From the IMG/VR virus record IMGVR_UViG_3300020434_000055: a stretch of 64,000 nt of DNA; one strand, 5' to 3'. A model generated the notes under the pieces. That model saw only the letters and a program-made list of their open reading frames with translations, ran no database searches and was not told where the DNA came from. Positions 5,250 to 35,044 of this stretch are shown here, one piece after another. A program made the translations under genes and the position numbers. Source of the stretch: a virus. Taxonomy: Duplodnaviria > Caudoviricetes. Numbering within the stretch: position 1 is the stretch's first letter; each line of letters opens with the position of its first letter.

Positions 5250-5441
5250 ATGAGAGATAAAATACATTTGGTTAAACATTCAGAAGGCTTATCAAAAGAA
5301 GCCAAAGAAAAACTATTGTTTAGAACACAACGTCAACCTGTTGAAGCAGGGGCTAATGGCACACTTCATTACACAATCAAAAAAGGTGCAAATGAAGGTA
5401 AGATAGCCAAACTCAAAAAATTAAAGAAACTTTCCGACTAA
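5250..5441 (+). CDS. Hypothetical protein
   Basis: ORF track; TAAGTA 5 nt upstream. Confidence 0.6.
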   Translation: MRDKIHLVKHSEGLSKEAKEKLLFRTQRQPVEAGANGTLHYTIKKGANEGKIAKLKKLKKLSD

Positions 5442-6428
5442 TTTAGTAATTAAATTAATATGTGATGTACTAGTGTTTAAACAATGTACTAGTTTGAATT
5501 CCGTTCCGCCTGCGTTTCTAAAAATCTTCTGACCTTCATTACCAATTTCATCTATAGTTTCTAAACAATCTGCTGAAAAGCCAGGACAGACTACTAAAAT
5601 TTTGTGTGGACCTTCTGCAGGTAATTTTTTTAAAGTTTCATCTAAAGCTGGATCAAACCAATCCTTTTTACGTCCAAGTCTACTTTGAAATACTGTTTCT
5701 ATTGGAATGTTATAAGGTTTCATTTGTTCTCTAATAAGTCGTGTAGTTTTAATACATTGACAGTAATAAGGATCACCTTTATCTAAAGTAATTTTTGGAA
5801 CATTATGATAACTTAAAACAATAGTATCAGGAGTCCACTCTAGTCTTTCTATTTCACGTTCTAAAGAACCAACTATTGCTTTAATATAATCATCGTCATC
5901 AAAGTATCTTGGAATAATTTGAACTTGTGGTTGCCATCTTTCTTTCATTAAAACTCTAAAAACTTCATCAGAAACAGTTGCAGTAGTAGATGAACTATAC
6001 TGTGGGAACAAAGGTAGTACAGTTATTTGTTCACATCCTTTATCCTTTAAACTTTTAATACCATCTGCTATACTTGGACCACCAAAACGTAAAGCCCACT
6101 CTACATCAATACCTGGCATATCAAGTTCTTTATCTAATAATTCAGCTTGACGTTTAGTAGTTGTTCTTAAAGGTGATCCATCTTTAGTCCATATACGTTT
6201 ATATGCTTTTGAAATCTTACCAGGTCTAAAAATTAAAATATAAAAGTTAAGAATTAACCACCATAGTATTGGATTAATATCTACTATTCTAGGTTCACTT
6301 AAAAATTCTTTAAGAAAATGTCTTATTTCTTTCCATGACGTTCCACTTGGCGTACCAAGGTTTACTACTAGTATTCCTTTACGTCCATGAGGTATTTTAG
6401 GGTGGTCTTTATGAATCATCTCGACCAA
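5421..6428 (-). CDS. hemH: Ferrochelatase
   Basis: GILVVNLGTP, FLKEFLSEPRIV, GSPL, LPLFPQYSSSTT, SYH, PYYCQC, FQSRLG, PGFSADCLETIDEI. Confidence 0.95.
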   Translation of the reverse strand: MVEMIHKDHPKIPHGRKGILVVNLGTPSGTSWKEIRHFLKEFLSEPRIVDINPILWWLILNFYILIFRPGKISKAYKRIWTKDGSPLRTTTKRQAELLDKELDMPGIDVEWALRFGGPSIADGIKSLKDKGCEQITVLPLFPQYSSSTTATVSDEVFRVLMKERWQPQVQIIPRYFDDDDYIKAIVGSLEREIERLEWTPDTIVLSYHNVPKITLDKGDPYYCQCIKTTRLIREQMKPYNIPIETVFQSRLGRKKDWFDPALDETLKKLPAEGPHKILVVCPGFSADCLETIDEIGNEGQKIFRNAGGTEFKLVHCLNTSTSHINLITKLVGKFL

Positions 6429-7242
6429 TTCGACTTATAAGAGTTCGCATTTTACTATCTAATGGTTTTTCTTTAATTGGTAGATCCTTCCGTAATTCTT
6501 TTCTAACTCTTTTTGCTTCTGTAATATCATAATCATCTTCACCTTCAACAATCATTTGGGCATTAATATTAATTCTAATTCCTTGACCTATAAATGGATA
6601 AACACAATGCGGTGTATGACCAGGAAAAATAATTGCAGTTCCTGGATAAGGTCTATAATGATGCACTACTCCATTAGGCATTACTCCATCCCACCCACCG
6701 GTATACACTTCAGGAGGCGAAACCCCTTCCTTCATTTTAGGAGGTTCAACTAAAAGTTGAACAGGAGTAGCAAGGTAAGTTGTCATACTTAATTCTTCTC
6801 TATGTGAATGAACAGGAAGAAAATTACCTTCAGAGTGCCAATTTATCCAAGCCGCATTAACAAACATTTTATTATTAGGTTTAGAATCAGACCAGTAATC
6901 ATTTTTACGACCAAACATAAGTTCTTTATATTTTCCACCACAATAAGCTATAAAGTCTTTTCGTCCAGTCCATTCAACCATTGCTACGTTTCCTGTATCA
7001 GTTTTTCTTCTTACGCCATCTTCATCAGTATGATAAGGTTGTACTGGTTGAACTTTTGGAGATTGTCTTATCTCTATTGCTAATTGTAATAAATGGGCAG
7101 TCCATTCTCGAGTAAGTTGTACTTGAGCAAAAGGAGTATTAGGTATCATACGAACTTGTATATCTTCAAGTTTAAGACTATCACCATCTACATTTGGAAA
7201 ATCTCCAAATAAATTTTTGAAGTTATCATCTTTTTTAAGCAT
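6409..7242 (-). CDS. 2OG-Fe(II) oxygenase-like protein
   Basis: WINW....FLPVHSH..ELS..YL; PYPGTAIIFPGHTPHCVYPF; RININ. Confidence 0.75.
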   Translation of the reverse strand: MLKKDDNFKNLFGDFPNVDGDSLKLEDIQVRMIPNTPFAQVQLTREWTAHLLQLAIEIRQSPKVQPVQPYHTDEDGVRRKTDTGNVAMVEWTGRKDFIAYCGGKYKELMFGRKNDYWSDSKPNNKMFVNAAWINWHSEGNFLPVHSHREELSMTTYLATPVQLLVEPPKMKEGVSPPEVYTGGWDGVMPNGVVHHYRPYPGTAIIFPGHTPHCVYPFIGQGIRININAQMIVEGEDDYDITEAKRVRKELRKDLPIKEKPLDSKMRTLISRIGRDDS

Positions 7243-7957
7243 TCTTTCCCCAATTCTTTTTCGATTCTATCGCCCAGCCTGGTTTAACATCAGGCCAATC
7301 TAAACATTGAACAGTTGCTCCAAGAGCCCATCGCTCTCCTTCAAATTTAAAAGGATAGCTAGTGTGTAAAAGATTCGATGGAAGAATAACAATACGTCCA
7401 GGATTAGGCCTTAAAACTTCTGTAGCTTCAGGCAAACACAAATCTAATCCACCTTCCTTGGCTTCCTCTAGATAATAAGGCTTACCGTCTACCCATTTAA
7501 TTTTTTGGTCGGCCCCTAATCCTTTTGATTGATCTCGAAGTTCAGCAGGAGATTTTAAAAATATTATTACATGAAGATGTACATTTGGATCCTGTGCGTG
7601 ATGATGCATAGGTTGATATTCATGTTTTGATTGAACTGTTAACCATTGTTGATCAAACTTCACTCTAGTTATTGGCTTACCAACATCTCCACAATATTGT
7701 AAACAATAATCCATTAATTCAGGTATCCATTTAGTTGAGTTCCATTTCCAATACCAAGCTCTATTAGGATCTTGTTCACTCTTTTTTATTTTTTCATCTT
7801 CTGGTCGGCCAAATTGTCTAAGGATTCTAGCTTCTTCTAATAAACCTTCTAAATGTTCTTTTGATACTGTACCAACCGAAAAAGGAAAGTCTTTGTTTGT
7901 TTTAATCCCCGGTCCTTGTAAGGCAGTATGTCTAGCCTGTTCTTCAAAACTACTCAT
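7235..7957 (-). CDS. 2OG-Fe(II) oxygenase-like protein
   Basis: QWLTVQ..HEYQPMHHH; PNPGRIVILPSNLLHTSYPF; RWAL. Confidence 0.75.
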   Translation of the reverse strand: MSSFEEQARHTALQGPGIKTNKDFPFSVGTVSKEHLEGLLEEARILRQFGRPEDEKIKKSEQDPNRAWYWKWNSTKWIPELMDYCLQYCGDVGKPITRVKFDQQWLTVQSKHEYQPMHHHAQDPNVHLHVIIFLKSPAELRDQSKGLGADQKIKWVDGKPYYLEEAKEGGLDLCLPEATEVLRPNPGRIVILPSNLLHTSYPFKFEGERWALGATVQCLDWPDVKPGWAIESKKNWGKNA

Positions 7958-10340: not shown

Positions 10341-11006
10341 ATGACTAAAGTAGAATTTGATCCATACCTAGACGGTAAAAAAGTTTTCAACCCAGACATG
10401 ACAGTCGACATTAAAGACTTCATCGGAGTATTCGAAAAGGCTTATACTAAAGAATGGTGTGAATCTGCTATAAGATATTTTGAAAGAATGGACAAATTAG
10501 GATTCGGCAGATCAATTCAGGAAATAATAGGAACACCCAGACATTTAAAAGATACTAACAATTTTAATACATCTAGATTATACAGCCAAGGAGAAAATAT
10601 GTTGAGTATCGTAGGAGTTCCTGCAATACAAGATGTATTCTTAGAAACGTTTTGGTCTTGTTATAATGGAATATACAGACAAATGTTTTCATCATTACAA
10701 CCAGTTGAAACTGCTCCGCAAATGGTTTATGAAATGAAAATTCAAAAAACAAAACCGGGCGAAGGTTATCACGTTTGGCACTGGGAACAGATGAGTAGAT
10801 CAGATGTAACTAGATTTATGGTTATCCAAGTGTTCCTAAATGATGTTGAAGAAGGTGGCGAAACAGAATGGTTATACTATCCTCGAAGAATCAAAGCAAA
10901 GCAAGGAACATTATTAATTTTCCCTGGTAATTATACTCATACACATAGAGGTAATCAACCATTAAATGGATCTAAATATACAATTAATACTTGGCTAGAA
11001 TTTTAG
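10341..11006 (+). CDS. 2OG-Fe(II) oxygenase (prolyl-hydroxylase-like)
   Basis: KIQKTKPGEGYHVWHWE, YLND-like FLNDVEEGGETEW, GTLLIFP..YTHTHRG, SKY.INTW. Confidence 0.88.
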   Translation: MTKVEFDPYLDGKKVFNPDMTVDIKDFIGVFEKAYTKEWCESAIRYFERMDKLGFGRSIQEIIGTPRHLKDTNNFNTSRLYSQGENMLSIVGVPAIQDVFLETFWSCYNGIYRQMFSSLQPVETAPQMVYEMKIQKTKPGEGYHVWHWEQMSRSDVTRFMVIQVFLNDVEEGGETEWLYYPRRIKAKQGTLLIFPGNYTHTHRGNQPLNGSKYTINTWLEF

Positions 11007-11017: not shown

Positions 11018-11662
11018 ATGTCTAATGACCTTATTGAAGTTAGAGCTATTAGACCACCAAATGTTGGCTGGTTAGAAGTAATCCTCAACAAAGAAGCAAT
11101 GGACAAACTATGGAGTTATGTCGATGTCGCTAAAGAAAATGTAAATCATAAACTTGCTGGACAAATTACTGAAAGTTTAAAATTAGAAGACAAAGACGAT
11201 TGGTTTCTAAATAATGTTATACTACAAGTTAGACAAAAGTATGAAAAGGAATTTGGAATTCCTAGTGAATATAAAAGTTTTATTAATGATAAATGGTATG
11301 TCGAATTGAAATCTTTTTGGGTAAATTTTATGAATCAAAATGAATCAAACCCATACCATAATCATACAGGAGTTTATTCTTTTAATATCTGGATGAAGAT
11401 ACCAACTGACTGGAAAGAACAACATGAACTTCCTATTGTTAAAAATTCCAACTTTCCGACGGCTTCAAACTTTCAATTTTTTTATACTGATATGATGGGA
11501 AACCAGAGAGCATTTGATTATCGTTTAGATAAAAGTTGGGAAGGAAAAATGGTATTTTTTCCTGCTAAATTAATGCATACAGTTTATCCTTTTTATAATT
11601 GTGATGAAACAAGAATATCTATTGCTGGTAATCTAGGAATTAATGTAGTAAACCATGACTAA
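11018..11662 (+). CDS. 2OG-Fe(II) oxygenase-like protein (start revised from 10991)
   Basis: FWVNFM....NPYHNHTGVYSF.IW; GKMVFFPAKLMHTVYPF; RISIAGN. Confidence 0.85.
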   Translation: MSNDLIEVRAIRPPNVGWLEVILNKEAMDKLWSYVDVAKENVNHKLAGQITESLKLEDKDDWFLNNVILQVRQKYEKEFGIPSEYKSFINDKWYVELKSFWVNFMNQNESNPYHNHTGVYSFNIWMKIPTDWKEQHELPIVKNSNFPTASNFQFFYTDMMGNQRAFDYRLDKSWEGKMVFFPAKLMHTVYPFYNCDETRISIAGNLGINVVNHD

Positions 11663-12623
11663 ACCTAAATTAAGAATATTTGGAGACAGTTTTGCTGTAA
11701 ATCCTCCAGACAGGCAATCAAATTTTTATTCTGTAGATAAAAAACATATCGCTCTCATAGATGAATTTAAAAAAGTAGAAGACAATTATAGACCCTGGAT
11801 GCATCAAGTCGCTGATAAACTTGATATGGAATTAGTAAATCGTTCAGCCGTAGGAATTAGTCAAGACTGGACTATGGATAATATTCATCATGTTATGAAT
11901 GAAATTAGCCCCGATGACCAAGTTCTAATTCTTCTTACGCACCCTGCAAGGTTTTGGTTCTTTCATGACAAACCTACAATGACAAACGCCAATATAGCTA
12001 ATATTGATCAAGAAGTAGATAGCAATCGACTAGAAGCTGTTAAACATTATCTAACAACTATTCAAAGACCACCCCTTGACCTTTTAATGCAAAGTGAAAG
12101 AATGGGTTGGCTATCAGCAACTGCTCATAGATTAAAATGGAAACCTATTCAAATTGTTTATGGTTTTCCTCCTGTTATGTATCCTCAACAATCTGCTGAC
12201 AATTTTTACGGACCTTATATGGAATACGAAAAGTTTGAAAATTTAAAATGTTCTAAAGGTAACTTGCTTGATGACGTAGAATCTCTTGAAGTTAAAGAAG
12301 GAATAAATGAATTTGAATTATGGGAAGGATACGATACTAGATATAATCATTTAATCAAAAGTAATCATGTAATCCTATCTAATTTAATTGTTGAAGCAAT
12401 TAAAAACAAAGAGTGCGTTGATCTTAAATCAGCAAATTGGGTTAAACGAGTTATAGATTTTGATACGTTTAATAATGTAAAGTTTTGTGAAAAAGAAATG
12501 AATCCATATTACTTAAAACTTCGTAAAAAATTCTTTGAAAGTAGTACTAAAGAAGCAAGGATACCTTGGGCTGAACGACTTGGGATTTTTGAGAAATTTG
12601 CGAAAAAACCTAAAAAAGATTAA
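11655..12623 (+). CDS. Hypothetical protein, SGNH-hydrolase-like N-terminal motif
   Basis: LRIFGDSF block, NRSAVGIS, late YNH. Confidence 0.5.
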   Translation: MTKPKLRIFGDSFAVNPPDRQSNFYSVDKKHIALIDEFKKVEDNYRPWMHQVADKLDMELVNRSAVGISQDWTMDNIHHVMNEISPDDQVLILLTHPARFWFFHDKPTMTNANIANIDQEVDSNRLEAVKHYLTTIQRPPLDLLMQSERMGWLSATAHRLKWKPIQIVYGFPPVMYPQQSADNFYGPYMEYEKFENLKCSKGNLLDDVESLEVKEGINEFELWEGYDTRYNHLIKSNHVILSNLIVEAIKNKECVDLKSANWVKRVIDFDTFNNVKFCEKEMNPYYLKLRKKFFESSTKEARIPWAERLGIFEKFAKKPKKD

Positions 12624-12959: not shown

Positions 12960-13622
12960 TTAAAGGTTTACTTGACTGGCTCCTTCACCTACTGTTCCTC
13001 GAACAAAACAATTAAATGCTAAAGACCATCTTATTGTATTTTCAGTTAAGTTAGGACTAACACTATGTAATAAGTGACTAGGAAACATAACCAAGTCCCA
13101 CATTTTTGGTTTGAAAGACCAACCTTCTGCATTATAAACATTTAAATCTATTTCTGTTGGATCACCATAATCTATTCTGGCTGTGTCTGTAAAAACATTC
13201 CTCCACATTCTATCTTTATGAAAATTAATATTTCCTGTGTCTCCTATATGTGATAGGTATAACACTCCGCTAATCAAAGAGTTGGCATGAGAGTGTTCCC
13301 CACTCCAATCATTTCGTTCGTATTTGTTCATCCAACTAGTCTCCATTACAAATGTATGTTTTTTATCTACGCCTAAAAAATTATGTACATAACTATCAAG
13401 TTTAAATTGAACTTCTTCTTTTAATGGTTTACAAATAAGTTCGTCTAAAACATGAACATTAGTTGTATTTTGAGCATTAGAATATAAATGTGGTTTGTAT
13501 TCCAAATTCTTAAGATAATCTATAATTTCATCACTGACAGGATTTATATTAGTTTTGCATAAAGGTATTGCAAATAAAGGTGTTACTTCATTATCGGTAA
13601 CGTGTTGTTTTGCTGTAGTCAT
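12960..13622 (-). CDS. 2OG-Fe(II) oxygenase-like protein (TIGR02466-like)
   Basis: TPLFAIP, SWMN, HSHANSLISGVLY, LVMFPSHLLHSV, SLAFN. Confidence 0.88.
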   Translation of the reverse strand: MTTAKQHVTDNEVTPLFAIPLCKTNINPVSDEIIDYLKNLEYKPHLYSNAQNTTNVHVLDELICKPLKEEVQFKLDSYVHNFLGVDKKHTFVMETSWMNKYERNDWSGEHSHANSLISGVLYLSHIGDTGNINFHKDRMWRNVFTDTARIDYGDPTEIDLNVYNAEGWSFKPKMWDLVMFPSHLLHSVSPNLTENTIRWSLAFNCFVRGTVGEGASQVNL

Positions 13623-14771: not shown

Positions 14772-15854
14772 CTATTTATTGGCCTTCTTTGACGTTGCTT
14801 TTCTGAATTGAAGAAACTCTCTATTTTGCTTAACACAATTAGTTAGAGTTTCAATAGTTTTTGGGTCTGTTGTTTTTATAATTCCTCCGCCTAAATTAAA
14901 AATATAAGATGAATTTTCAAATTGTCTAAGATACCATAACGCATTTCTTAAAACATTAATTTTTCCTAATGATGGATCAGCTGTTAAAATTTCTGGATCC
15001 ATTCCTCCTTGAACAGTATAATTAGGTAAATGTTTCATAGCCCATTTAGGGTCAACATCAGAACTGATACTAATAACATCAACGCCAGTCCAATGACAAA
15101 ATTCTTTAACATCTTTTCCTATATCTCTAGGGTAACCAATTATTGGAACATTTGGAAATTCTTTTTTTAATTTTTCAACAATATAAGCAGTTGGATTATA
15201 ACAAAAGTCAATAAGATAATCTTCTCCTAACTCACCTGCCCAGCTATCAAAAATTTGTACGATATCACAACCAGCTTTAATTTGTTCTGACAAATGCATA
15301 ACAATAAGATCACACAATTTTTCTAATCTAAACATTGAATCAAATTGATCTAATGATGCCGGATCTGTATTTTTAGATATAGTGTATGGTGAATTAGCAT
15401 TTGATTTTGATCCAGACATCATATATCTTAATAATGTCCATGGTGCTCCAGCAAAACCTATTAATGATTTTCCTTCATGTAATTCTTTACGAACTAATTT
15501 AATTGCTTCATACACTGGTTTAAGTTTTTCTTTTACAACTTCAATATCAGCATTAAACACCGCAGGGTCTAATGGATCTAACTTAGGTCCAGGATTATAA
15601 ACTAATCCTTGCCCCATAGCCCAAGGTATAACCAAAATATCAGAAAAAATTATCGCGGCATCAAGATCAAATCTTTCCATTGGTTGAAGAGTTATCGTTT
15701 TAGCTGTTTCAGGAGTAAGGCACATATCTAAAAATCCTTTACTCTTGTTTTTAATTTCCATATATTCAGGTAGATAACGACCTGCCTGACGCATATACCA
15801 AACTGGAAATAAACCAGTTTCACCATTCATTATTGTTCTATGAAGTCTATTCAT
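14772..15854 (-). CDS. hemE: Uroporphyrinogen decarboxylase
   Basis: PVWYMRQAGRYLPEY, ITLQP..RF.LDAAIIFSDIL, LIGFAGAPWTL..YM, QIFDSWAG, VQGGMDP, IFNLGGGI (His of the usual NLGHG replaced by Gly). Confidence 0.95.
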   Translation of the reverse strand: MNRLHRTIMNGETGLFPVWYMRQAGRYLPEYMEIKNKSKGFLDMCLTPETAKTITLQPMERFDLDAAIIFSDILVIPWAMGQGLVYNPGPKLDPLDPAVFNADIEVVKEKLKPVYEAIKLVRKELHEGKSLIGFAGAPWTLLRYMMSGSKSNANSPYTISKNTDPASLDQFDSMFRLEKLCDLIVMHLSEQIKAGCDIVQIFDSWAGELGEDYLIDFCYNPTAYIVEKLKKEFPNVPIIGYPRDIGKDVKEFCHWTGVDVISISSDVDPKWAMKHLPNYTVQGGMDPEILTADPSLGKINVLRNALWYLRQFENSSYIFNLGGGIIKTTDPKTIETLTNCVKQNREFLQFRKATSKKANK

Positions 15855-17746: not shown

Positions 17747-17998
17747 ATGAAATGGATAATAATTTTGTTTTTTATTTTTATATTTGGTTTGCCTATGTAC
17801 GCCTATTATTCGGTAAGCAGTGGACATTTCTTTCAAGTTAACGCAGGGTGTAAAGAGTGTACAGTAGAAGCAGTTGAAAAAATAAAGGCAAAATTAAAAG
17901 CAGAAAATAATATACGAGTAGAAAAAAATAAAAAAGCACTTCATGACGGAACTTATAAAGCAAAACCGTGGGCCGGGTGGCCGTGGGATAGAGAATAA
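17747..17998 (+). CDS. Small membrane-anchored hypothetical protein (CxxC)
   Basis: Hydrophobic N-terminus, GCKEC. Confidence 0.6.
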
Positions 17999-19437
17999 TG
18001 GAACAAGACAAAATACTTAGAGAACGATTTAAAAAAAAATACGAAGCAGGGTTCACTACTAATGTTGAATCAATAACATTACCACCTGGACTTGATGAAA
18101 GTGTTATAGAACAAATCTCAAAAATTAAAAAAGAACCTAAATGGTTACTTGAATTTAGATTAAAAGCATATGAAAGATGGAAATTACTTAAACAACCTGA
18201 CTGGGCTAATCTTGAAATAGAACCAATAGACTATCAAACCATATCATATTATTCAGCACCCAAACCAGGACCCAAGTCATATGATGATGTCGATCCTGAA
18301 ATTAAAAAAGACTTTGAAAAACTTGGTATACCTTTAGGGGAAAGAGCCCAACTTGCAGGTGTGGCTGTTGATGCCGTATTTGATTCTGTATCTGTTGCAA
18401 CTACGTTTAAAGATAAACTAGCAGAACTAGGAATTATATTCTGTCCATTTTCAGATGCAGTACAAAATCATCCAGACCTTGTAAAAAAATATATGGGATC
18501 AGTTATACCTATAAGTGATCATTCATTTGCCGCTTTAAATTCTGCTGTCTTTACAGATGGTTCATTTGTATATGTTCCTCCAGGTGTAAGATGTCCTATG
18601 GAACTATCAACATATTTTAGAATTAATGCGGCTAACACAGGACAATTTGAAAGAACATTAATTATAGCCGATGTAGGAAGTTATGTAAGTTACCTTGAAG
18701 GATGTACTGCTCCAATGAGAGATGAGAGTCAATTACACGCCGCTAATGTAGAACTTGTAGCACTTGATAATGCAGAAATAAAATACTCAACAATACAAAA
18801 TTGGTATCCAGGAGATCCTGTAACAGGTAAAGGTGGCATATACAATTTTGTAACTAAACGTGGAAAATGTAAAGGAAAAAATTCTAAAATTACTTGGACA
18901 CAATTTGAAACTGGATCACGAATAACTTGGAAGTATCCATCGTGTTTGTTAATGGGTGACAACTCTGTAGGAGAATTTTATTCTGTTGCACTTACAAACG
19001 GTAAACAACAAGCAGATACAGGAACTAAAATGATCCATTTAGGTAAAAATACTAAAAGCACAATTATTTCAAAAGGAATATCTGCAGGACATTCTAAAAA
19101 CACATACAGAGGACTTGTAAGAATTTCTAAGAATGCAAGTAACTCAAAAAATTTTACACAATGTGATTCATTAATGTTGGGTAGTCATTGTTCTGCTAGT
19201 ACAGTACCTTATATTGAAAATAAAAATTCAACAAGTAATTGCAGTCACGAAGCCACAACATCTAAACTAGATGATGAACAATTATTTTATATAATGTCGA
19301 GAGGATTAAAAGACGAGGATGCTAGAAATATGCTCGTAATGGGTTTCTGTAAAGAAGTATTTCAAAAACTACCAATGGAATTTGCCGTAGAGGCTAATAA
19401 ACTATTAGAAGTTAGTATGGAAGGAGCAATAGGATAA
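17998..19437 (+). CDS. sufB: Fe-S cluster assembly protein SufB
   Basis: [66 protein letters not shown]. Confidence 0.97.
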
Positions 19438-20399
19438 TGCAAGACTTAATGTATAAAAAAGTTTCTAAAGTTATTCCTGAAATAGAATGGAAATTTCATT
19501 CTCCTTATGTTTATGAAATTAATAAATTAAAAAAAGAAAAGAATGCAGTTATTCTTGCTCACAATTATATGACACCAGAGATATACCATTGTGTTGCTGA
19601 CATAGTAGGAGACTCTTTAAAATTAGCACAAGAATCACAAAAGACAAAAGCAGATACCATTGTAATGTGTGGTGTAAATTTTATGGCTGATACAGCCAAA
19701 ATAATGAATCCAAGTAAAACTGTTTTAATACCTGATCCACAAGCAGGATGTTCTTTAGCAGAATCTATTACAGGCAAAGATGTACGTTTATTAAAAGAAA
19801 GATATCCTGGTGTGCCTGTTGTGACTTATGTAAACACATCTGCTGACGTTAAAGCTGAAACAGATATATGTTGCACATCAGGTAATGCAGTAGAAATTAT
19901 AGAATCGTTAGGAGTAGATAAAGTTATCTTCCTTCCAGATGAATACCTTGCAAAAAATGTAGCCAAACAAACAAAAGTAAAAATTATTACTTGGCATGGT
20001 ACTTGTATAGTTCATGAAAGATTTACAGCACAAGAAATTAGAGAATATAGAAAAGACAATCCAGGTATAACTATTCTAGCCCATCCAGAATGTACACCAG
20101 AAGTTGTTGCTGAAGTAGACTTTACAGGCTCTACATCTAAAATGAGCAACTACGTTAAAGAAAAACAACCTAACAAAGTATTAATGGTTACAGAATGTTC
20201 TATGAGCGATAACGTTTCAATAGAAAATCCTAATGTAGAATTTGTTAGACCTTGCAATTTGTGTCCACATATGAAACGAATTAGTCTTGTAAAAGTATTG
20301 GAATCATTGATGTTAAATATTCACGAAGTAAAAATTGACCAGGAAATCCTAGAAAAAGCTAGACTTCCAATAGAAAGAATGCTACAATTTAGTAAATGA
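19437..20399 (+). CDS. nadA: Quinolinate synthase
   Basis: [63 protein letters not shown]. Confidence 0.97.
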
Positions 20400-21881: not shown

Positions 21882-22073
21882 TTATTTGTAATAGTCTAAA
21901 TCTTTTTCCTTCTTGAACTTACTTAAAATCTTTTGTACAAATTCAACAACGTATCCAGTCCATTGTACAAGCAATGCCCATATTATTACACTTAAAAATA
22001 ATACTACGCAAGTTGGAATCCATATCATAAAGAATAAGGCACTTCCTATAGTTTCTATTATATTTTTTACCAT
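21882..22073 (-). CDS. Small membrane protein
   Basis: Long hydrophobic stretch; overlaps hemF stop. Confidence 0.55.
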   Translation of the reverse strand: MVKNIIETIGSALFFMIWIPTCVVLFLSVIIWALLVQWTGYVVEFVQKILSKFKKEKDLDYYK

Positions 22074-22903
22074 TTGACCTCCGGTGGTAACGACATTAAT
22101 ATTGCGTCCATATTTCCTCCTGTTTGTAATCCAAATTTTGTTCCACGATCATACATTAAATTAAATTCAACGTACCTTCCTCTTTTAAATAATTGTTTTT
22201 CTTTATCCTTTTCATCCCAAACATAATTTTGATTTTGTAAAACAATATTACTCATAAGAGAATTAAAAGTTCTACCAATATCTTTCACAAATTCCATATC
22301 TTTATCAAAGTCTTTAAAATGATAATCAAAAAATAAACCACCTATACCACGAGGCTCTTTTCTGTGTGGCAAATAAAAGTATTCATCGCACCACTCAGAA
22401 AACTTAGAATAATACTCTTCATCGTGTTTGTTACACATTAATTCGAGTTGAGTATGGTACCAATCTTTTTGTTTATCATTTTCAATACAAGGAGTAACAT
22501 CCATTCCGCCACCGAACCAACATTTCGTAGTACAAATAAATCTAGTATTAAAATGCATTGCAGGAATTTTAGGATTCTTTGGATGTAGAACAACCGAAAT
22601 ACCTGACGCCCAATAATTAGGATCTTTCTCTGTACCTGGTATTTGTTTTCTCATAAGGTCATTAAACTCTCCTGTTACTCTTGAATAATTTACCGTTCCT
22701 TTTTCAAAAACATTTCCTTGAATAACAAAATGTTCTTGATACCATCCTTCTCTTTGTGAAGTTTTATGGCTTTTCATTTTAGCAGGATTTGTTGGATAAA
22801 ATTCTTTTTCTAATGCATCTATATTTTTACGAATGTCATGTTGTAAAGATTGAAACCAAGTAGTAGCTATCTCTTGGTATTTTAATTTTGATTTGATTTT
22901 CAC
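22067..22903 (-). CDS. hemF: Oxygen-dependent coproporphyrinogen III oxidase
   Basis: GNVFEKG.VNYS.V.G, WASGISVVLHP.NP.IP.MHFN.R, WFGGGMD.TP, CDEYFYLPHR.E.RGIGGLFFD, RGRYVEFNL.YDRGT.FGL. Confidence 0.97.
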   Translation of the reverse strand: MKIKSKLKYQEIATTWFQSLQHDIRKNIDALEKEFYPTNPAKMKSHKTSQREGWYQEHFVIQGNVFEKGTVNYSRVTGEFNDLMRKQIPGTEKDPNYWASGISVVLHPKNPKIPAMHFNTRFICTTKCWFGGGMDVTPCIENDKQKDWYHTQLELMCNKHDEEYYSKFSEWCDEYFYLPHRKEPRGIGGLFFDYHFKDFDKDMEFVKDIGRTFNSLMSNIVLQNQNYVWDEKDKEKQLFKRGRYVEFNLMYDRGTKFGLQTGGNMDAILMSLPPEVKW

Positions 22904-23109: not shown

Positions 23110-23527
23110 TTAATTTCTTCTTATTCTTTTTATGCTGATTTTGAATAAGTTTTTTGTTTTGTCCATAGTAAGCTACTGCATAGCCTTCTTTACACATTTG
23201 AAGATTAATGTTTTTACCACTAATAAAAACCTCTCCTAATATTCTTCCAAACTTTCCTGTTTGTTCTCCTTTATGTGTTTTAATCGTTAATCTTTTACCA
23301 ACTGCTAATTTGTCTTTTAAATATTTTTTAGATAATAGTCCTAATTTCTTTTCTTCAAGATCTCTTGTTCTGCTTTCAGGAGTATCTATACCAAATAATC
23401 TAACTCTACTTTTATATTTGATATCAAATCCCATATCTATTCTAACGTCTATTGTATCTCCATCAACAACTTTTAAAACTTTATCAATACGATATGAAAA
23501 ATCTGTTGGGTCTCCTAATTTTGCCAT
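23084..23527 (-). CDS. Thermonuclease (SNase-like) family protein
   Basis: KVVDGDTIDV..D.GF, RVRLFGIDTPESRT, GKFGRILG, IN..M..EGYA..Y.G. Confidence 0.9.
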   Translation of the reverse strand: MAKLGDPTDFSYRIDKVLKVVDGDTIDVRIDMGFDIKYKSRVRLFGIDTPESRTRDLEEKKLGLLSKKYLKDKLAVGKRLTIKTHKGEQTGKFGRILGEVFISGKNINLQMCKEGYAVAYYGQNKKLIQNQHKKNKKKLIANGIIKN

Positions 23528-23868
23528 TAACTTCCTTTCCCTGGTTTCTCACTAAAATGTTTTATTTTATCTTTAACGTCTCGCCATTTTGCCTCATCGG
23601 CAGGAACGTCTTCCGGTCTCTTTTTACTTATATTGGGCCACTGAACACTATATTTCTTATTGAAGTCAACCCATTCATTGGCTCCGTCATCTGTATCTGG
23701 TTGTATAGCACTTACCGGACATTCAATTTCACAAACTCCACAATCAATACACTCATCTGGATGTATTACAAGCATATTTTCTCCTTCATAAAAGCAATCC
23801 ACTGGACATACTTCCATACAATCCATTAATTTACATTTAATACAATTTTGGTTAACAATATAAGTCAT
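23527..23868 (-). CDS. fdxA: Ferredoxin, FdxA-type (7Fe/8Fe)
   Basis: [52 protein letters not shown]. Confidence 0.95.
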
Positions 23869-26438: not shown

Positions 26439-26467
26439 ATTATATACATATAATGATGATTTGTCAA
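26439..26467 (-). promoter_or_regulatory. Consensus sigma70 promoter of dnaK
   Basis: TTGACA-17-TATAAT on the minus strand. Confidence 0.8.
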
Positions 26468-26704
26468 TTGTCAAGAGCACTTTGGTGAAATTTATTAGTG
26501 AATAGTATCAAAAGGCCCCGCACAACCATGTTCTTCAATAAAATTTATGTTTTTTACTGCCACCCAGGGTTCATTTTTGGACAATGTGTCCCAGGCATCT
26601 GATATATCCATGGCATAGACACCATAGGCTTGATTGTAAGGAAAATGTATTATGTATAACTTAATTGCATAATTTAACATATTATACATTTAGTTATTAT
26701 GGAA

Positions 26705-27070
26705 TTATTCTTGGAATCCTTCTGGTACTTCAGTGATGACGTCAAAAGTGTAATAAAGAAGACAACCCATTTCACTTCCTGGAAGAGTTAACATAGAGAA
26801 TTTTTTCGTTCTGTCCTCATCATAAAATGTTGTTATCATATAAACAGGAGCACCATTTGGGTCTCCATCTTGTCTACCTAAACTATACTCTTGTGCTGTA
26901 AAGCCCATACGTTTAAGTTTGTCTTTAGCATGGTCTTTGGTAGAGCAAACTACAGGAATTTGTTGCCACTCAAATCCTTCTAAGGACCAATCCTCATACT
27001 TTGGTTCTTCAGCTTGTACATTAAAAAGCATAAAAAACACAATAACAAATGATAATAAAAACGTTCTCAT
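26705..27070 (-). CDS. Secreted hypothetical protein with two Cys
   Basis: Signal peptide ending NVQA. Confidence 0.7.
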   Translation of the reverse strand: MRTFLLSFVIVFFMLFNVQAEEPKYEDWSLEGFEWQQIPVVCSTKDHAKDKLKRMGFTAQEYSLGRQDGDPNGAPVYMITTFYDEDRTKKFSMLTLPGSEMGCLLYYTFDVITEVPEGFQE

Positions 27071-27118
27071 CGCTTGTTATTTAGAGTCGTTTGATTACTA
27101 CTTCTAATACACTTTAAC

Positions 27119-27382
27119 TTATTTTCTTCGTTTTGATTTCTTTTTGGATTTCTTTTTTGTTTTAGGTTTGATAAGTTTCTTTTTAAAACGTGAGAATTTT
27201 TTAAATTTAGATTTAAAACGATTTGCTCCTGTGTCCTCACTTCTCATCCCATACGGAATTTGCTGAACTTTACCTCCCTTTTTAAGGAAAGCCTTCATTA
27301 ATTTTTCAGCTTCTTTTCGTTTGGCTTCTTGAGCCTCTAGAGAACGGTGACCACCGTCGTCGTCTGTACTATAACCTTTCAT
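27119..27382 (-). CDS. Basic phage hypothetical protein
   Basis: FLKKGGKVQQIP motif, Lys-rich tail. Confidence 0.65.
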   Translation of the reverse strand: MKGYSTDDDGGHRSLEAQEAKRKEAEKLMKAFLKKGGKVQQIPYGMRSEDTGANRFKSKFKKFSRFKKKLIKPKTKKKSKKKSKRRK

Positions 27383-27413
27383 AATGTCTTACGACATTAT
27401 ATACTCAATTAAG

Positions 27414-27542
27414 TTATGCGTTAATGAAGTTTTGGATATGAAGCCAAGCAGTTTGAGTCCACTCAATGATATGACTCGCCCATTGAGGTTGTACAAGATA
27501 GATGTACATTCCAATTGCTCCAAATATTATACCTTTTATCAT
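27414..27542 (-). CDS. Small membrane protein (42 aa), not in ORF track
   Basis: MIKGIIFGAIGMYIYLVQPQWASHIIEWTQTAWLHIQNFINA*; GAAAGG SD and TTGACA-17-TACAAT promoter (27597-27569) upstream. Confidence 0.65.
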   Translation of the reverse strand: MIKGIIFGAIGMYIYLVQPQWASHIIEWTQTAWLHIQNFINA

Positions 27543-27604
27543 AATCAGCCTTTGTTGCCTTTCTTACTATTGTAAGCTCTTTGTACCAAATTGTCAATAT
27601 GGAA

Positions 27605-27623
27605 AGAATCCGCTATTTTATTG
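27605..27623 (-). repeat. 19-bp direct repeat, copy 1 (CAATAAAATAGCGGATTCT on minus strand)
   Basis: Identical to 30056-30074; lies 7 nt upstream of a -35 box. Confidence 0.85.
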
Positions 27624-27691
27624 ACTAATATGGTAAAAATACCTTTTGAATAAGCAATAATGCAATAGCCATACCCATCCAAAACCATAAT

Positions 27692-28021
27692 TTATTGTTT
27701 TCTTTTAAAAAGTTCTTGAACTTCTTCATTTAAATCTTCTAATGTTATTTCATCTACAGGAGTGCCGTCTTCCTTTATTGCTTTTTCTTGTTCCGGTTTT
27801 TCCTTGTCTTTAGTTTCTTGTTCTTGTTTCTTTTTATCTTTGGCTTTTTGTCCCCATCCATCATATGACATATCAGTTAATGGATCTTTTATTTCTTTTA
27901 CATTAGTAACTTTATATCCTGGAAAACGAGTTTCGATGTCTGTTCCAGTATCACTATAAACAAAAGTTTTAATAGTCTTCTCAGGTAATTTTAATTTAAA
28001 TTGCCAAGCTCTTTGAGTCAT
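27692..28021 (-). CDS. Hypothetical protein
   Basis: ORF track. Confidence 0.6.
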   Translation of the reverse strand: MTQRAWQFKLKLPEKTIKTFVYSDTGTDIETRFPGYKVTNVKEIKDPLTDMSYDGWGQKAKDKKKQEQETKDKEKPEQEKAIKEDGTPVDEITLEDLNEEVQELFKRKQ

Positions 28022-30771: not shown

Positions 30772-31071
30772 TTATTCTATTTCATACCATAACAATAACG
30801 ATGGATCTTTAGGTCTCCAACCAAAACGTGGCTCTTGCCAATCGTCCTGACTCATGTCTGCCCACATGGCATCAAATATAACGTCAGAATTAAATTCATC
30901 CTCGTCACATTCAAGTTTTTCTGTAAGCATTTTAATCATATCTATAATCTTCTCATGCAACACTTCTTTGTTAAATGCCTGCAATCGTTGATGGTCCCAA
31001 TAAGGTTTTAGCTCTTCGTATTGTTCTTTGGTTATCATTGAACAACTCCTAGTCATATATTTACTGGTCAT
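30772..31071 (-). CDS. Hypothetical protein
   Basis: ORF track. Confidence 0.55.
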   Translation of the reverse strand: MTSKYMTRSCSMITKEQYEELKPYWDHQRLQAFNKEVLHEKIIDMIKMLTEKLECDEDEFNSDVIFDAMWADMSQDDWQEPRFGWRPKDPSLLLWYEIE

Positions 31072-31444
31072 CGGATTTAAGTTTTCTGTTCTTTTTATAA
31101 TCTTGGTTCTTATGGCTTTTATATGAGTGACAAATTTTACATAATGTTTGTGTATTATCAGCAGTATTGTTTAAAGGATCACCATCTATGTGGTCTAATT
31201 CTAATGCTCCCTTCCAGGGAATAATAGCAGTACATTTATAGCCAAGTCGTTCATCTATATTTTCACAATAAGTTTTCTTAACTTCAGTAACTCCTTCTTC
31301 TAGCACACTTGCACCATAAGATGCCTCATGACATTTCCAACATACAGGTCTCCATCTTTTCGTACCATTTTTATGACTGTGTGAATATGTCACATTTCTA
31401 GTACAACCGTTGTTAATACAAATTGGTGCAATCATATTAGGCAT
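31061..31444 (-). CDS. HNH endonuclease-like Zn-binding protein
   Basis: CxxxxC, CWKCH, LELDHIDG.P.NN...N.QTLCKICH..K; likely start at MIAPIC (31435). Confidence 0.85.
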   Translation of the reverse strand: MPNMIAPICINNGCTRNVTYSHSHKNGTKRWRPVCWKCHEASYGASVLEEGVTEVKKTYCENIDERLGYKCTAIIPWKGALELDHIDGDPLNNTADNTQTLCKICHSYKSHKNQDYKKNRKLKSDDQ

Positions 31445-31518: not shown

Positions 31519-31755
31519 ATGAGAGCAATTGAATTTGTTTATAACGAAGAAGGTCCGGCATCCAAGGCTTTGTGTAAAAGCTCTAAACCAGCTTCTGAAT
31601 TAGGAGCCAGTCAATTAGCTTCATGTAAAAGCCAAGGACTTAGAGCTAGATCCGGTAAAAAATCATATAAAATAGGTAAGAAGAGAGTTAAGGTTGCAGG
31701 CAAAACAATCAAAGGCAAACCTTATGGAGGCCCTCTTCCATTGTACAGCAAATGA
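31519..31755 (+). CDS. Basic phage hypothetical protein (start revised from 31495)
   Basis: MRAIEF... start; TAAATA 5 nt upstream. Confidence 0.65.
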   Translation: MRAIEFVYNEEGPASKALCKSSKPASELGASQLASCKSQGLRARSGKKSYKIGKKRVKVAGKTIKGKPYGGPLPLYSK

Positions 31756-32303
31756 GTTCAATAATGCAAAACAATTGGATTAGAAAAATATTGGTGTCTA
31801 CGCCTATAATGGGTAAAGATTCTACGTTCAATAGAAGTGTAATTTTACTTTACGAAGAATCAGTTCAACATATTGCAGGATTAGTTCTTAATAAACCTTC
31901 AAAAACTCCAGTACAAACTATTTTTAAAATTAAAGGATTTAAACCTCTTGGTCTTAAAGATATGGTTTTTTCTGGCGGTCCTGTAAGTCAAGAAGCTGTA
32001 ATGATTTTACACTCTGACGAATGGAAATGTAATAATACACTTAATTTAGGTAATGGTTTTAGTTTAACTAGTGATGCTAATATGTTAAAAAAAATTCATG
32101 AACAAGACAAACCAAAACAATGGAGAGTGTATAGTGGATTATCTTTATGGAATCCCGGCCAATTAGAGGGAGAAATAAATTCTAAATGCTGGTTAGTTAT
32201 TCAAAAACCTACCCAAGACTTAATTTTAGAAACAAATCCTTTATTGCAATGGCAGAAAGCTATTGACCTTTGCAGTAAAGAAACAATGGATCAATATATC
32301 TAG
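31752..32303 (+). CDS. yqgE: YqgE/AlgH (DUF179) family protein
   Basis: ILVSTP.M..D.TF.RSVILL, GLVLNKP, VFSGGPV, WRVYSGLSLW.PGQLEGEI...W. Confidence 0.88.
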   Translation: MSSIMQNNWIRKILVSTPIMGKDSTFNRSVILLYEESVQHIAGLVLNKPSKTPVQTIFKIKGFKPLGLKDMVFSGGPVSQEAVMILHSDEWKCNNTLNLGNGFSLTSDANMLKKIHEQDKPKQWRVYSGLSLWNPGQLEGEINSKCWLVIQKPTQDLILETNPLLQWQKAIDLCSKETMDQYI

Positions 32304-32342: not shown

Positions 32343-33545
32343 ATGGTACCAATAGATCCCTTCAAAAAAGTTATCGACACATTAAAAGCGAACGGCAATT
32401 ACAGAGTTTTTAACGATGTATTGCGAGAAGCCGGACATTTTCCTAATACAATTTGGTATGGAAAACATAATATTAAAAAAGTAATTAATTGGTGTTCTAA
32501 TGATTATTTAGGCATGGGTCAGCATAAAGTTGTTATGGACGCAATGAGAACAGCATTAGAAACTACAGGTGCGGGTAGTGGTGGAACAAGAAACATATCA
32601 GGGACATCACATTACCATGTAGCTTTAGAAATGGAGTTAGCAAAACTTCATAAAAAGCCAGCATCACTTTTATATACATCAGCCTTTGTTGCAAATGAAT
32701 GGACATTAATTTCTCTTAAAAAAATTATTCCAGATATAGAATTTGTTAGTGATAGTGAAAACCATGCTTCTATAATAGTAGGTATTAAAAATAGTAGAGC
32801 ACTTAAACATATATTTGAACATAATAATTTAGAAGACTTAGAAAAAAAATTAAAACAAGTAAAAGGTACACCTTGCGTAATATTTGAATCTGTATATAGT
32901 ATGGACGGTGACATAGGACATATTAAAGAAATTTGTGATATTGCAGACAAATATAATGCAATAACATTTATTGATGAAGTTCATGCAGTTGGATTATACG
33001 GTCATGAAGGTGCAGGATTTTTAGAAAAATTAGGACTACAAGATAGAGTAGATATTGTTTCTGGTGGCTGTGGTAAAGCATTTGGAGTAGTAGGTGGTTA
33101 CGTTGCCGGAGATGCCACAGTAATAGATGCAATCAGATCTGTGTCTTCAGGATTTATTTTTACTACTAGTAATAGTCCAGTAATATGTGCAGGTGCATTA
33201 GCTTCTGTAAAATTTCTTAGAGATGACGGCGGAAGAGAATTAAGACAACAACACCAACAAGCGGCAAGTCAATTAAGAAAGTTATTATTAGATGCTAATA
33301 TTGATATGGGCACCTCTACATCACATTTAATTCCAGTAATGGTTAGAGATCCAATTAAATGTAAAAAAATGAGTGACGCTTTATTATTAGAACATGACAT
33401 TTATGTTCAGCCTATAAATTCTCCTACGGTTAAACCTGGGACAGAACGATTAAGATTTGCTCCAACACCTTTACATTCTGAATCTATAATACATGATTTA
33501 GTAGACAAACTAAAGAAAGTTATGTTACAATTAGAAAATGAATGA
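32343..33545 (+). CDS. hemA: 5-aminolevulinate synthase (C4/Shemin pathway)
   Basis: NYRVF, WCSNDYLGMGQH, GAGSGGTRNISG, SDSENHAS.I.GI, FESVYSMDGD, DEVHAVGLYG, GKAFGVVGGY, GFIFTT, YVQPIN.PTV..GTERLRF. Confidence 0.96.
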   Translation: MVPIDPFKKVIDTLKANGNYRVFNDVLREAGHFPNTIWYGKHNIKKVINWCSNDYLGMGQHKVVMDAMRTALETTGAGSGGTRNISGTSHYHVALEMELAKLHKKPASLLYTSAFVANEWTLISLKKIIPDIEFVSDSENHASIIVGIKNSRALKHIFEHNNLEDLEKKLKQVKGTPCVIFESVYSMDGDIGHIKEICDIADKYNAITFIDEVHAVGLYGHEGAGFLEKLGLQDRVDIVSGGCGKAFGVVGGYVAGDATVIDAIRSVSSGFIFTTSNSPVICAGALASVKFLRDDGGRELRQQHQQAASQLRKLLLDANIDMGTSTSHLIPVMVRDPIKCKKMSDALLLEHDIYVQPINSPTVKPGTERLRFAPTPLHSESIIHDLVDKLKKVMLQLENE

Positions 33546-34197
33546 ATCCGATTATAAAATAACCCCATTATGGGCAACGCCTTTATTTCAATCGACTCTT
33601 AAAAATATACCACAAGAGTGTAAAGACTATATTATGAAAAACGTTGAGTATAAAAGATATCCTGCTAATAATGGATTTGGATCAAAAAGTAAATTCTTAT
33701 TAGATATTCAAGCTCTTGCTCCACTTAAAAAAGTATTAACAGATGTTACACATGAATACCTTTATAAAATATTAGACATAGACGAATCCGCAGATTTTCA
33801 AATGACTAACAGTTGGTCCGTAAAACATATAAAAGGAGATGAGGCTGGACAACATCATCATGCTAATTCTATGTTAAGTGGAATTTTATATCTTCAAACC
33901 GATGAAAAAACCGGTGATGTTTTATTTGTTAAAGAAAGAAATCATTTTCCGTTATTCAATGATACAATACAAATTCCTTTTAAAGGCAACAACTATAACT
34001 TATATAATGTAGAAGGATGGGCAATAAAACCCAGAAACAATCAATTATTGTTATTTCCTTCACAACTTAGACACGAAGTATATCCAAACGAAAGCGATAC
34101 TGAAAGATATTGTATTGCTTTTAACTTCTTTGCATTTGGCAAATTTGGCTATGACGACCAAGTTCAATTAGGTATTAAAGATGTCACCCGTGACTGA
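33538..34197 (+). CDS. 2OG-Fe(II) oxygenase-like protein (TIGR02466-like)
   Basis: TPLWATP, SW, HHHANSMLSGILY, LLLFPSQLRHEV, RYCIAFN. Confidence 0.88.
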   Translation: MNESDYKITPLWATPLFQSTLKNIPQECKDYIMKNVEYKRYPANNGFGSKSKFLLDIQALAPLKKVLTDVTHEYLYKILDIDESADFQMTNSWSVKHIKGDEAGQHHHANSMLSGILYLQTDEKTGDVLFVKERNHFPLFNDTIQIPFKGNNYNLYNVEGWAIKPRNNQLLLFPSQLRHEVYPNESDTERYCIAFNFFAFGKFGYDDQVQLGIKDVTRD

Positions 34198-35044
34198 TAA
34201 AATTATTATAGGAACCCGTGGCAGTAATTTAGCTTTATCCCAAGCTCGAAGTATTCAAAAATTATTAGAAATTGATTCCGAAATAAAAATTATAAAAACA
34301 TCTGGGGACATCCATGAAAATAAAGCTATTGCTGATATAGGAGGCAAAGGTGTATTTTCAACACAAATTGAACAAGAATTATTAGATTCAAAAATAGATT
34401 TAGCTGTTCACAGTTTAAAAGACCTACCAGGCATAATGACAAAAGGTTTATGTATTAAAGGTGTTGCAAAAAGAAATGATCCCAGAGATGCATTGTTAGG
34501 AAAAATTAAAAAAGGATCTAAAATTGGTACTAGTTCTCCTAGAAGAACTGCCCAATTAAATTATATAAAAAAAGATATAGAAATACTTCCTATTAGAGGT
34601 AATATAGATACTAGAATTAAAAAACTTAAAGATGGACAATATGACGCAATAATATTAGCAATGGCTGGTTTACAAATGCTTGGTTTAGAAAACGAAGTTG
34701 ATAAAATATATGATCTTGATGAAATAAAACCTTGTGCAGGACAAGGCATCATCGCAATACAAACTAGAGACAACAATGATCCTTTAAATGATTTAATTAC
34801 CAAAATAAATGACATACCAACATTTTATCAAGCCCAAGCAGAACGTTCCTTGCTAGAAGCAATTGGAGGGGATTGTCATACTGCATTAGGATGTTATACT
34901 ATGGTATCGGCCTACCATCTTTATCTAACAAGTGAACTATATGTAAATGATAAAAAATATACTGCATCTGGTTCTGGTAATGTTATTGATGCCAAAGACC
35001 TTGGAATCAGAGTTGGTAAAGAATTGTTAGCTCAAACAGACTAA
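34181..35044 (+). CDS. hemC: Porphobilinogen deaminase (hydroxymethylbilane synthase)
   Basis: IGTRGSNLAL.Q, IKTSGD, GGKGVF, DLAVHSLKDLP, DPRDAL, IGTSSPRR, IRGNIDTR, LAMAGL, GQG, GGDC. Confidence 0.96.
   Translation: MSPVTDKIIIGTRGSNLALSQARSIQKLLEIDSEIKIIKTSGDIHENKAIADIGGKGVFSTQIEQELLDSKIDLAVHSLKDLPGIMTKGLCIKGVAKRNDPRDALLGKIKKGSKIGTSSPRRTAQLNYIKKDIEILPIRGNIDTRIKKLKDGQYDAIILAMAGLQMLGLENEVDKIYDLDEIKPCAGQGIIAIQTRDNNDPLNDLITKINDIPTFYQAQAERSLLEAIGGDCHTALGCYTMVSAYHLYLTSELYVNDKKYTASGSGNVIDAKDLGIRVGKELLAQTD

Follow-up and report, generated by a model that had tools for sequence, protein, structure and literature searches.

The window examined here is a stretch of 64,000 nucleotides of uncultured marine phage DNA (IMG/VR record IMGVR_UViG_3300020434_000055) that encodes enzymes of heme biosynthesis between positions 5421 and 35044. 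Five genes of this pathway, alaS, hemC, hemE, hemF, and hemH, had been recognized from the nucleotide sequence alone in an original prediction, which described them as intact and as lying at five separate loci. All five are indeed intact at those places, and their products pass the Pfam and NCBIfam equivalog cut-offs, but they occupy four loci, not five, because alaS and hemC share one overlapping operon that also includes a gene for a 2-oxoglutarate (2OG)-Fe(II) oxygenase. The four loci contain the following genes.

5421..6428, minus strand: hemH, protoporphyrin ferrochelatase of the SAR11 type (PF00762, 328 bits; TIGR00109, 263 bits against a cut-off of 125)
14772..15854, minus strand: hemE, uroporphyrinogen decarboxylase variant with NLGGG in place of NLGHG (PF01208, 276 bits; TIGR01464, 303.3 bits against a cut-off of 302.95)
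22067..22903, minus strand: hemF, O2-dependent coproporphyrinogen III oxidase, tail-less SAR11-type form (PF01218, 277 bits; NF003727, 324.8 bits against a cut-off of 297)
31752..32303, plus strand: AlgH-like (DUF179) gene, 40 bases upstream of alaS (PF02622, 119 bits)
32343..33545, plus strand: alaS (valaS), 5-aminolevulinate (ALA) synthase (TIGR01821, 533.9 bits against a cut-off of 338.55)
33538..34197, plus strand: 2OG-Fe(II) oxygenase gene between alaS and hemC (PF13759, 80 bits)
34181..35044, plus strand: hemC, hydroxymethylbilane synthase (TIGR00212, 290.6 bits against a cut-off of 164)

The same set of heme genes is found in an independent IMG/VR contig, G001 (43.6 kb), which is colinear with the window from 0.5 to 36.4 kb and has the five genes in the same order, with amino acid identities of 70 to 88%. 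Because G001 repeats all five genes in order, a one-off chimera is ruled out. Pairwise ratios of nonsynonymous to synonymous substitution rates (dN/dS) between the two contigs range from 0.11 to 0.26 (0.11 for alaS, 0.19 for hemE, and 0.21 for hemH); all five genes are under purifying selection, and none is decaying. Judged from their sequences, the five enzymes look functional.

The window is densely coding, has a G+C content of 31 to 36%, and contains 74 open reading frames (ORFs) of at least 100 amino acids. Profile scans with Pfam or PHROGs, not always with both, covered 65 of these ORFs, the other nine being overlapped by longer ones. No HemB, HemD, protoporphyrinogen oxidase, or heme oxygenase is found among the 65 scanned ORFs, which agrees with the original prediction that the first three of these are not in the window.

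Sequence features of the heme enzymes

AlaS aligns end to end with the ALA synthases (ALAS) of Caulobacter and R. capsulatus (7x98 and 2bwn, respectively), and the pyridoxal phosphate-lysine block KAFGVVGGY is conserved. Its scores against the sister alpha-oxoamine synthase families KBL, BioF, and SPT are below the own cut-off of each of them. The active-site residues presumably have the roles known for those of R. capsulatus ALAS. At the position of R. capsulatus His342, the window protein has a Lys, and the C-terminal Cys is absent. Both reported heme-feedback residues are thus missing, and the window AlaS would be a feedback-insensitive ALA synthase.

The alaS gene, the 2OG-Fe(II) oxygenase gene, and hemC form a single operon of consecutively overlapping genes on the plus strand, in which a promoter and terminator scan gave nothing beyond chance expectation. 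The AlgH-like gene, which is possibly part of the same transcript, is located just upstream of alaS also in G001, in the 148-kb contig G002, and at further alaS loci. A homologue of the 2OG-Fe(II) oxygenase is encoded directly after alaS in G001, G002, the 156-kb contig G003, and the loci L003, L008, L011, and L032. This PF13759 gene is a conserved partner of alaS, even among phages whose AlaS proteins are only 59 to 88% identical. In HemC, the catalytic Lys-Asp, the Arg clusters, and the Cys that carries the dipyrromethane cofactor align with those of B. megaterium HemC.

The catalytic His (in the motif SYH) and Glu (in CLET) of HemH align with H263 and E343 of the human enzyme. At the position of human H341, HemH has a Cys, which is common to Pelagibacter HemH; a reading of this Cys as a defect was rejected, since Pelagibacter has the same residue. 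Two further 2OG-Fe(II) oxygenase genes lie directly upstream of hemH (6409..7957, minus strand; PF13759 in both, and phrog_81 for 6409-7242). Just downstream of hemH is a gene for a Vut_1 (YhhQ-like) transporter (4464-5120, minus strand) that is 96% identical in G001, as compared with 77% for hemH.

The conserved motifs of HemF align with those of solved structures. The protein lacks the last ~25 residues of the Pfam model and ends in LPPEVKW. The same stop is found in all six other viral HemF sequences whose 3' end is on the locus and also in HemF of SAR11 and Fonsibacter. A truncated or frameshifted hemF was considered and rejected, as there is no continuation in another frame, no remnant downstream, and the stop is conserved in G001, other viral, and SAR11 sequences. 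The hemF stop codon is overlapped by a 63-amino-acid ORF with a hydrophobic core (21882-22073, minus strand), which is kept in G001 and has no Pfam match. The space between nadA and hemF, occupied in the window by no more than a tRNA gene and small ORFs, holds in G001 a gene for a 441-amino-acid flavin adenine dinucleotide (FAD)-dependent oxidase (positions 26419-27744; L036:6419-7744). A HemY-type oxidase was considered and rejected, since the protein is a member of the sarcosine/glycine oxidase (DAO) family; a role in providing AlaS with glycine is conceivable.

Among the five proteins, HemE shows the lowest conservation (70% identity between the window and G001), and it clears the TIGR01464 equivalog cut-off by only 0.3 bits, a marginal score. 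It keeps the equivalents of human R37, R41, D86, Y164, and S219, but H339 is replaced by Gly, so that five of the six residues checked are retained. H339 is a substrate-binding residue of human uroporphyrinogen decarboxylase, for which the roles of these residues have been described (PMC3510221). The corresponding residue is Gly in the window, Ser in G001, and His in 52 of 52 other viral hemE loci. Among the nearest cluster representatives that have a residue at this position, 140 of 145 have His, and the other five have D, N, E, Q, or G. The change from His to Gly is real and specific to the lineage of the window. The NLGGG motif had been pointed out in the original prediction along with a doubt about the activity of the enzyme, and this doubt is justified, given the substrate-binding role of the lost His and its presence at the other viral loci.

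Phage relatives and the wider pathway

G002 is reverse-colinear with the window from 35 to 64 kb. Beyond the colinear part, it encodes a phrog_262 DNA polymerase, a baseplate-wedge connector, tail-fibre proteins, a ligase, and a Lon protease. The polymerase is closest to those of Sinorhizobium phage Phosso (469 kb; 50% identity), Vibrio phage 2.275.O (349 kb), and Escherichia phage 121Q (349 kb). The lineage has in common with jumbo myoviruses such as 121Q and Phosso the DNA polymerase (44 to 50% identity for that of G002) and the size class (349 to 469 kb); none of these jumbo phages is among the GenBank phage matches to the five heme proteins. The completeness of G001 and G002 is estimated by CheckV at 11% and 41%, respectively, implying a genome of 360 to 400 kb, and the exact window AlaS and HemE, together with a HemH of the same 90%-identity cluster, are found on contigs of up to 355,620 bp. 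An exact 42-mer of the window does not occur in IMG/VR or in the JGI metagenome collection, where a protein-based scan gave relatives with no more than 93% identity. The window also has phage-context traits of its own: an HNH endonuclease gene, three tRNA genes, and a series of about nineteen short ORFs that overlap one another on the minus strand between 26.5 and 31.4 kb. The closest match of its CsgG is the protein of Pelagibacter phage HTVC008M, and curli genes have been described in pelagimyophages (PMC7029224).

A search of IMG/VR with SAR11 HemB as bait gives a single contig, G356, with a length of 399,796 bp, a G+C content of 36.6%, and a CheckV completeness of 100%. Its DNA polymerase is 71% identical to that of G002, and gp23-like and gp20-like genes are present. 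Scattered over this genome are hemB (Pfam score, 407 bits), hemE (427 bits), hemF (388 bits), hemH (381 bits), hemC (278 bits), hemO (76 bits), and an alaS that is 61% identical to the window alaS. In addition, positions 337076-337642 (L304:17076-17642) encode a candidate HemD-fold protein of 188 amino acids, whose score against the HemD family model is only 21 bits. An AlphaFold model of this protein, built on 16 sequences, has a mean pLDDT of 82, and uroporphyrinogen III synthases account for all of its 13 best PDB matches (Foldseek E-values of 1e-5 to 2e-3; query TM-scores of 0.36 to 0.59). HemD is a flexible two-domain protein, for which modest TM-scores are expected. The family, which has 17 relatives in metagenomes, is about 60 residues shorter than ordinary HemD. 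The 188-residue protein is thus predicted to have the HemD fold and is a candidate uroporphyrinogen III synthase.

Counting this predicted fold, G356 would encode seven of the eight steps of heme biosynthesis plus a heme oxygenase. Because this complete 400-kb relative has hemB and the HemD-fold protein, the pathway of the window lineage probably continues outside the window. In G002, hemO lies beyond the position corresponding to the end of the window, at a distance of about 14 kb from it.

Origins and proposed role

In a comparison with one genome from each of 185,579 species, the best cellular matches of HemH are in Pelagibacteraceae (46 to 52% identity), followed by other Alphaproteobacteria (43 to 47%); SAR11 sequences were part of the query alignment and may have biased the result in their favour. 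HemF is 50 to 52% identical to SAR11 HemF, with the tail-less form in both, and HemC is 46 to 47% identical to SAR11 HemC, as compared with 39% for a Hyphomonadaceae genome. The relation is the reverse for AlaS, which is 44 to 49% identical to SAR11 AlaS and 53% identical to that of Hyphomonadaceae. For HemE, a phylum-wide identity scan for a donor gives nothing above 44%. A quick maximum-likelihood tree, the single-gene test that the original prediction had proposed, was made for this protein. It is unrooted, and its outsiders are the 40 nearest representatives only; in it, the window and G001 sequences group together (SH-like approximate likelihood ratio test [SH-aLRT] support of 99) inside an almost wholly viral clade of 28 sequences (support of 99). 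The viral clade is nested in a clade of 87 sequences (support of 100) that contains all SAR11 HemE, and a very divergent viral clade of 16 sequences and two further viral lineages stand apart.

These comparisons indicate more than one source for the heme genes, none of them recent, and travel of at least hemE within the phage gene pool. The independent captures proposed in the original prediction are borne out insofar as the nearest homologues are SAR11 proteins for HemH, HemF, and HemC but not for AlaS; HemE, on the other hand, would have been passed among phages and not taken fresh from a host, because the window protein falls inside the viral clade.

Heme genes are not confined to this lineage. 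The alaS gene is found on at least 32 IMG/VR contigs and hemE at 57 loci, in combinations that range from hemC-hemE pairs and hemE-hemF-hemC clusters to alaS alone. A true HemH is recovered by a pattern scan of IMG/VR only in G001 and one unrelated contig (51% G+C), a count that is a lower bound, as the scan missed G356. The five window proteins match none of the 38,880 PHROG families. In the GenBank phage set, their matches are fragments or mislabelled bacterial records plus the ferrochelatase of one Enterococcus phage (38%), all at 25 to 39% identity.

The closest described system is the viral ALA synthase gene, valaS, of aquatic phages (Wegner et al. 2024, PMC11480375). In both cases, a Shemin-pathway ALA synthase is encoded on uncultured marine myovirus-type contigs, the heme-feedback residues His342 and Cys400 are missing, and hemO is located elsewhere, an arrangement for which that paper uses the term "broken cassette." A viral AlaS complements an Escherichia coli ALA auxotroph, the assayed enzyme being a freshwater one (PMC11480375). 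The paper describes alaS either alone or with hemO and pcyA/X, and its text is without ferrochelatase, uroporphyrinogen decarboxylase, and coproporphyrinogen oxidase, whereas the window alaS is in an operon with hemC and has hemE, hemF, and hemH in the same genome. The window does not have the three-gene cassette of adjacent valaS, hemO, and pcyA/X: no hemO or ferredoxin-dependent bilin reductase gene was found near alaS, and in G002 hemO is about 40 kb from alaS.

The "deep ecotype" of pelagimyophages (Zaragoza-Solas et al. 2020, PMC7029224) resembles the window in its auxiliary hemF and hemC genes, in CsgG/CsgF in a variable region, in its marine origin, and in its SAR11 affinity. However, the cultured pelagimyophage HTVC008M has a genome of 147 kb and the class is T4-like with about 140 to 150 kb, as compared with about 356 to 400 kb here, and the DNA polymerase of the lineage is nearest to those of 121Q and Phosso. 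Genome size and polymerase type thus place the window outside the pelagimyophages, with CsgG/CsgF common to both. Moreover, the window adds alaS, hemE, and hemH to the published pair, and a relative of it adds hemB and a HemD-fold gene.

The "ferrochelatase" of pelagipodophages (PMC9599517, PMC11561400) is, like hemH of the window, encoded directly beside 2OG-Fe(II) oxygenase genes. Unlike these annotations, which cite phrog2954 in PMC11561400, the true PF00762 HemH of the window matches no PHROG. PHROG phrog_3531 ("ferrochelatase") and phrog_274 ("DNA endonuclease V") match 2OG-oxygenase-like proteins in the window (10341-11006, 13622-14182, 14184-14765, and 33538-34197). Because phrog_3531 matches 2OG oxygenases here and the true HemH matches no PHROG, PHROG "ferrochelatase" calls are open to doubt, and the published phage ferrochelatases and PHROG-based marine virome calls may represent a family different from HemH.

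The heme genes of SAR11 (Pelagibacteraceae) share with those of the window the Cys variant of HemH and the tail-less HemF; SAR11 HemC is the nearest one, and HemE falls in a shared clade. They differ in that the identity is only 41 to 52%, the gene order is another one, and AlaS is not specifically SAR11-like. A literature search for phages with hemE, hemF, and hemH or for heme synthesis in jumbo phages found no report of a set of five to seven steps. Published so far are single members or small cassettes (valaS; hemC with hemF; annotated ferrochelatases; hemO with pebS or pcyX).

The best explanation as a whole, with a probability of roughly 0.75, is that the window belongs to a region of auxiliary genes in an uncultured marine jumbo myovirus, which has a genome of about 356 kb and several SAR11-type borrowed genes, and that the heme genes of the window supply protoheme. 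During infection, the feedback-insensitive AlaS, HemC, the HemE variant, the O2-dependent HemF, and the true ferrochelatase HemH would sustain or increase the conversion of glycine and succinyl-CoA to protoheme. For HemB and HemD, the source would be another part of the phage genome or the host, and for the protoporphyrinogen oxidase step it would be the host. The heme would then go to host cytochromes and, in part, to the heme oxygenase of the lineage itself, a route to bilin and recycled iron. Direct support exists for the identity of the genes, the conservation of catalytic residues, purifying selection, the phage context, and the wider set in relatives; that the enzymes are active, when the genes are expressed, which host is infected, and how the phage benefits are matters of inference.

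Three observations weigh against this explanation. HemE lacks a reported substrate-binding residue and has a marginal equivalog score, so that decarboxylation may be weak or altered. The models of HemJ and HemY stay below cut-off in G356, G001, G002, and G003, HemG not having been searched for. Finally, there is no virion hallmark gene within the window, and its assignment to a phage rests on colinear relatives and contig size. The last point, the many cellular-looking genes (those for DnaK, SufB, NadA, a TolC-like protein, HlyD, and CsgG), and the proximity of HemH, HemF, and HemC to SAR11 would fit a low-GC marine alphaproteobacterial island, that is, a cellular or chimeric stretch misjoined to phage DNA. 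This is very improbable, as two independent IMG/VR contigs are colinear with the window over all junctions and the same block runs on into tail, baseplate, and replication genes in G002; virion and replication hallmark genes are also present in G003 and G356. Furthermore, the window heme proteins are only 41 to 53% identical to any cellular homologue found, one protein family of the window is viral only, and hemE and hemH, which are adjacent in SAR11, are 8 kb apart in the window among 2OG oxygenase genes. The evidence that the window is phage DNA is good but indirect: together with G001 and G002, the phage polymerase and the 355,620-bp contig with exact window proteins uphold the original view of it as neither cellular nor chimeric.

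Other doubts concern what the pathway makes. It is unlikely, although conceivable, that HemE activity is lost or changed and that the phage set is not a working linear pathway, with the host HemE used instead or uroporphyrinogen diverted or accumulated. This would agree with the presence of Gly (window) or Ser (G001) in place of an otherwise nearly invariant His, with the lowest window-G001 conservation among the five proteins, and with a score that sits at the cut-off, but hemE has a dN/dS of 0.19, the five other binding or catalytic residues are intact, and five of the nearest representatives are likewise without the His. A somewhat stronger competitor, which we still regard as less probable than protoheme supply, is that the pathway mainly makes substrate for a phage heme oxygenase and a PcyX-type bilin reductase, the wanted product being bilin or released iron and not respiratory heme. 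Indeed, hemO is present in G002 and G356, in the latter with a 227-amino-acid ORF directly after it, and valaS is often linked with hemO and pcyA/X on phage contigs (PMC11480375). Yet a distance of tens of kilobases separates hemO from the biosynthetic genes, with which it is not cotranscribed, and in G003 alaS, hemE, and hemC are present and hemO is not found. Bilin-binding proteins are not known from the likely hosts, which counts against a bilin product. The production of bilin or iron complements protoheme supply more than it excludes it. The purpose given in the original prediction, heme flux for respiration or iron sequestration, stands in part: the heme oxygenase of the lineage makes bilin production or iron recycling as plausible as respiration.

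The possible hosts were represented by an even sample of 41 Pelagibacteraceae genomes (G011 and G316-G355), many of which are incomplete single-cell or metagenome assemblies. ALAS scores over the cut-off in 10 of them and in none of the other 31, and glutamyl-tRNA reductase is over the cut-off in none of the 41. HemB is present in each of the five ALAS-less genomes tested, two of which have contigs of more than 1 Mb; G011, one of the five, has HemC, HemE, HemF, and HemH as well. The source of ALA in the ALAS-less genomes of the SAR11 family is not evident. This observation is a lead, not a result, as is its link to the phage host. A bolder, doubtful version of protoheme supply would be a jumbo-phage clade with an almost self-sufficient pathway (AlaS, HemB, HemC, a miniature HemD, HemE, HemF, and HemH, with a recognizable protoporphyrinogen oxidase as the single gap), in which AlaS would start a pathway that a SAR11-type host cannot start and would not be a mere boost.

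Five steps in one 30-kb stretch and, with the predicted HemD fold, seven of eight in a complete relative suggest that viral genomes can deliver an entire cofactor pathway, beyond its bottleneck enzyme alone. The natural HemE variant without the substrate-binding His and the minimal, 188-residue HemD-fold protein are concrete objects for tests. A separate question is that of heme synthesis in the many SAR11 genomes without a recognizable ALA-forming enzyme.

Iron-cofactor and other genes of the window

Several genes for iron cofactors are found among or beyond the heme genes.

17998..20399, plus strand: sufB and nadA, for Fe-S cluster assembly and an Fe-S enzyme, among the heme genes (NF008773, 837 bits; NF006878, 365 bits)
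23527..23868, minus strand: 4Fe-4S ferredoxin gene of the 7Fe type (PF11953, PF13237, and PF00037)
60108-60635: NifU-like gene

The sufB and nadA genes are 94% and 96% identical, respectively, to their G001 copies. Genes for SufB, NadA, the ferredoxin, and the NifU-like protein are interspersed with those for heme enzymes and Fe(II)/2OG oxygenases, which gives the region a theme of iron cofactors. The 64 kb include no fewer than eight 2OG-Fe(II) oxygenase genes; taken with the heme genes, the Fe-S genes, and the ferredoxin gene, they suggest that supplying iron cofactors is a major part of infection in the iron-poor ocean. Other auxiliary-looking genes include those for DnaK, PCMT, AdoMet decarboxylase, and the Vut_1 transporter. 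A CHASE2 cyclase gene and the start of a ribonucleotide reductase gene are also present.

Next to the ferredoxin gene, a 225-amino-acid N-terminal piece of CTP synthase (23868-24545, minus strand) covers only positions 85 to 238 of the 534-position model. It is 94% identical in G001 and is thus a conserved fragment and not a case of gene decay.

Two other ORFs were considered for a part in heme metabolism and rejected. The 322-amino-acid ORF at 11655-12623 is not a hidden HemB or HemD; its invariant N-terminal GDSF motif gives it the look of an SGNH-type hydrolase, and its family is viral only. The ORF at 31061-31444, which has two CxxCH motifs, is not a diheme cytochrome c but an HNH endonuclease according to Pfam.

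The stretch from 35814 to 47934 encodes a 1326-amino-acid cadherin-repeat protein, followed by a TolC-like protein, a 250-amino-acid ABC-like membrane domain without the ATPase part, and a short HlyD. The opposite strand of this block encodes a FecR-domain protein, a 373-amino-acid protein with a faint curlin repeat, CsgG, and CsgF. The whole block of cadherin-repeat, secretion, and curli genes is kept in G002 and at the locus L002. At the very start of the window (positions 1-130), the motif TTCACAGCGAG occurs three times within the first 120 bases.

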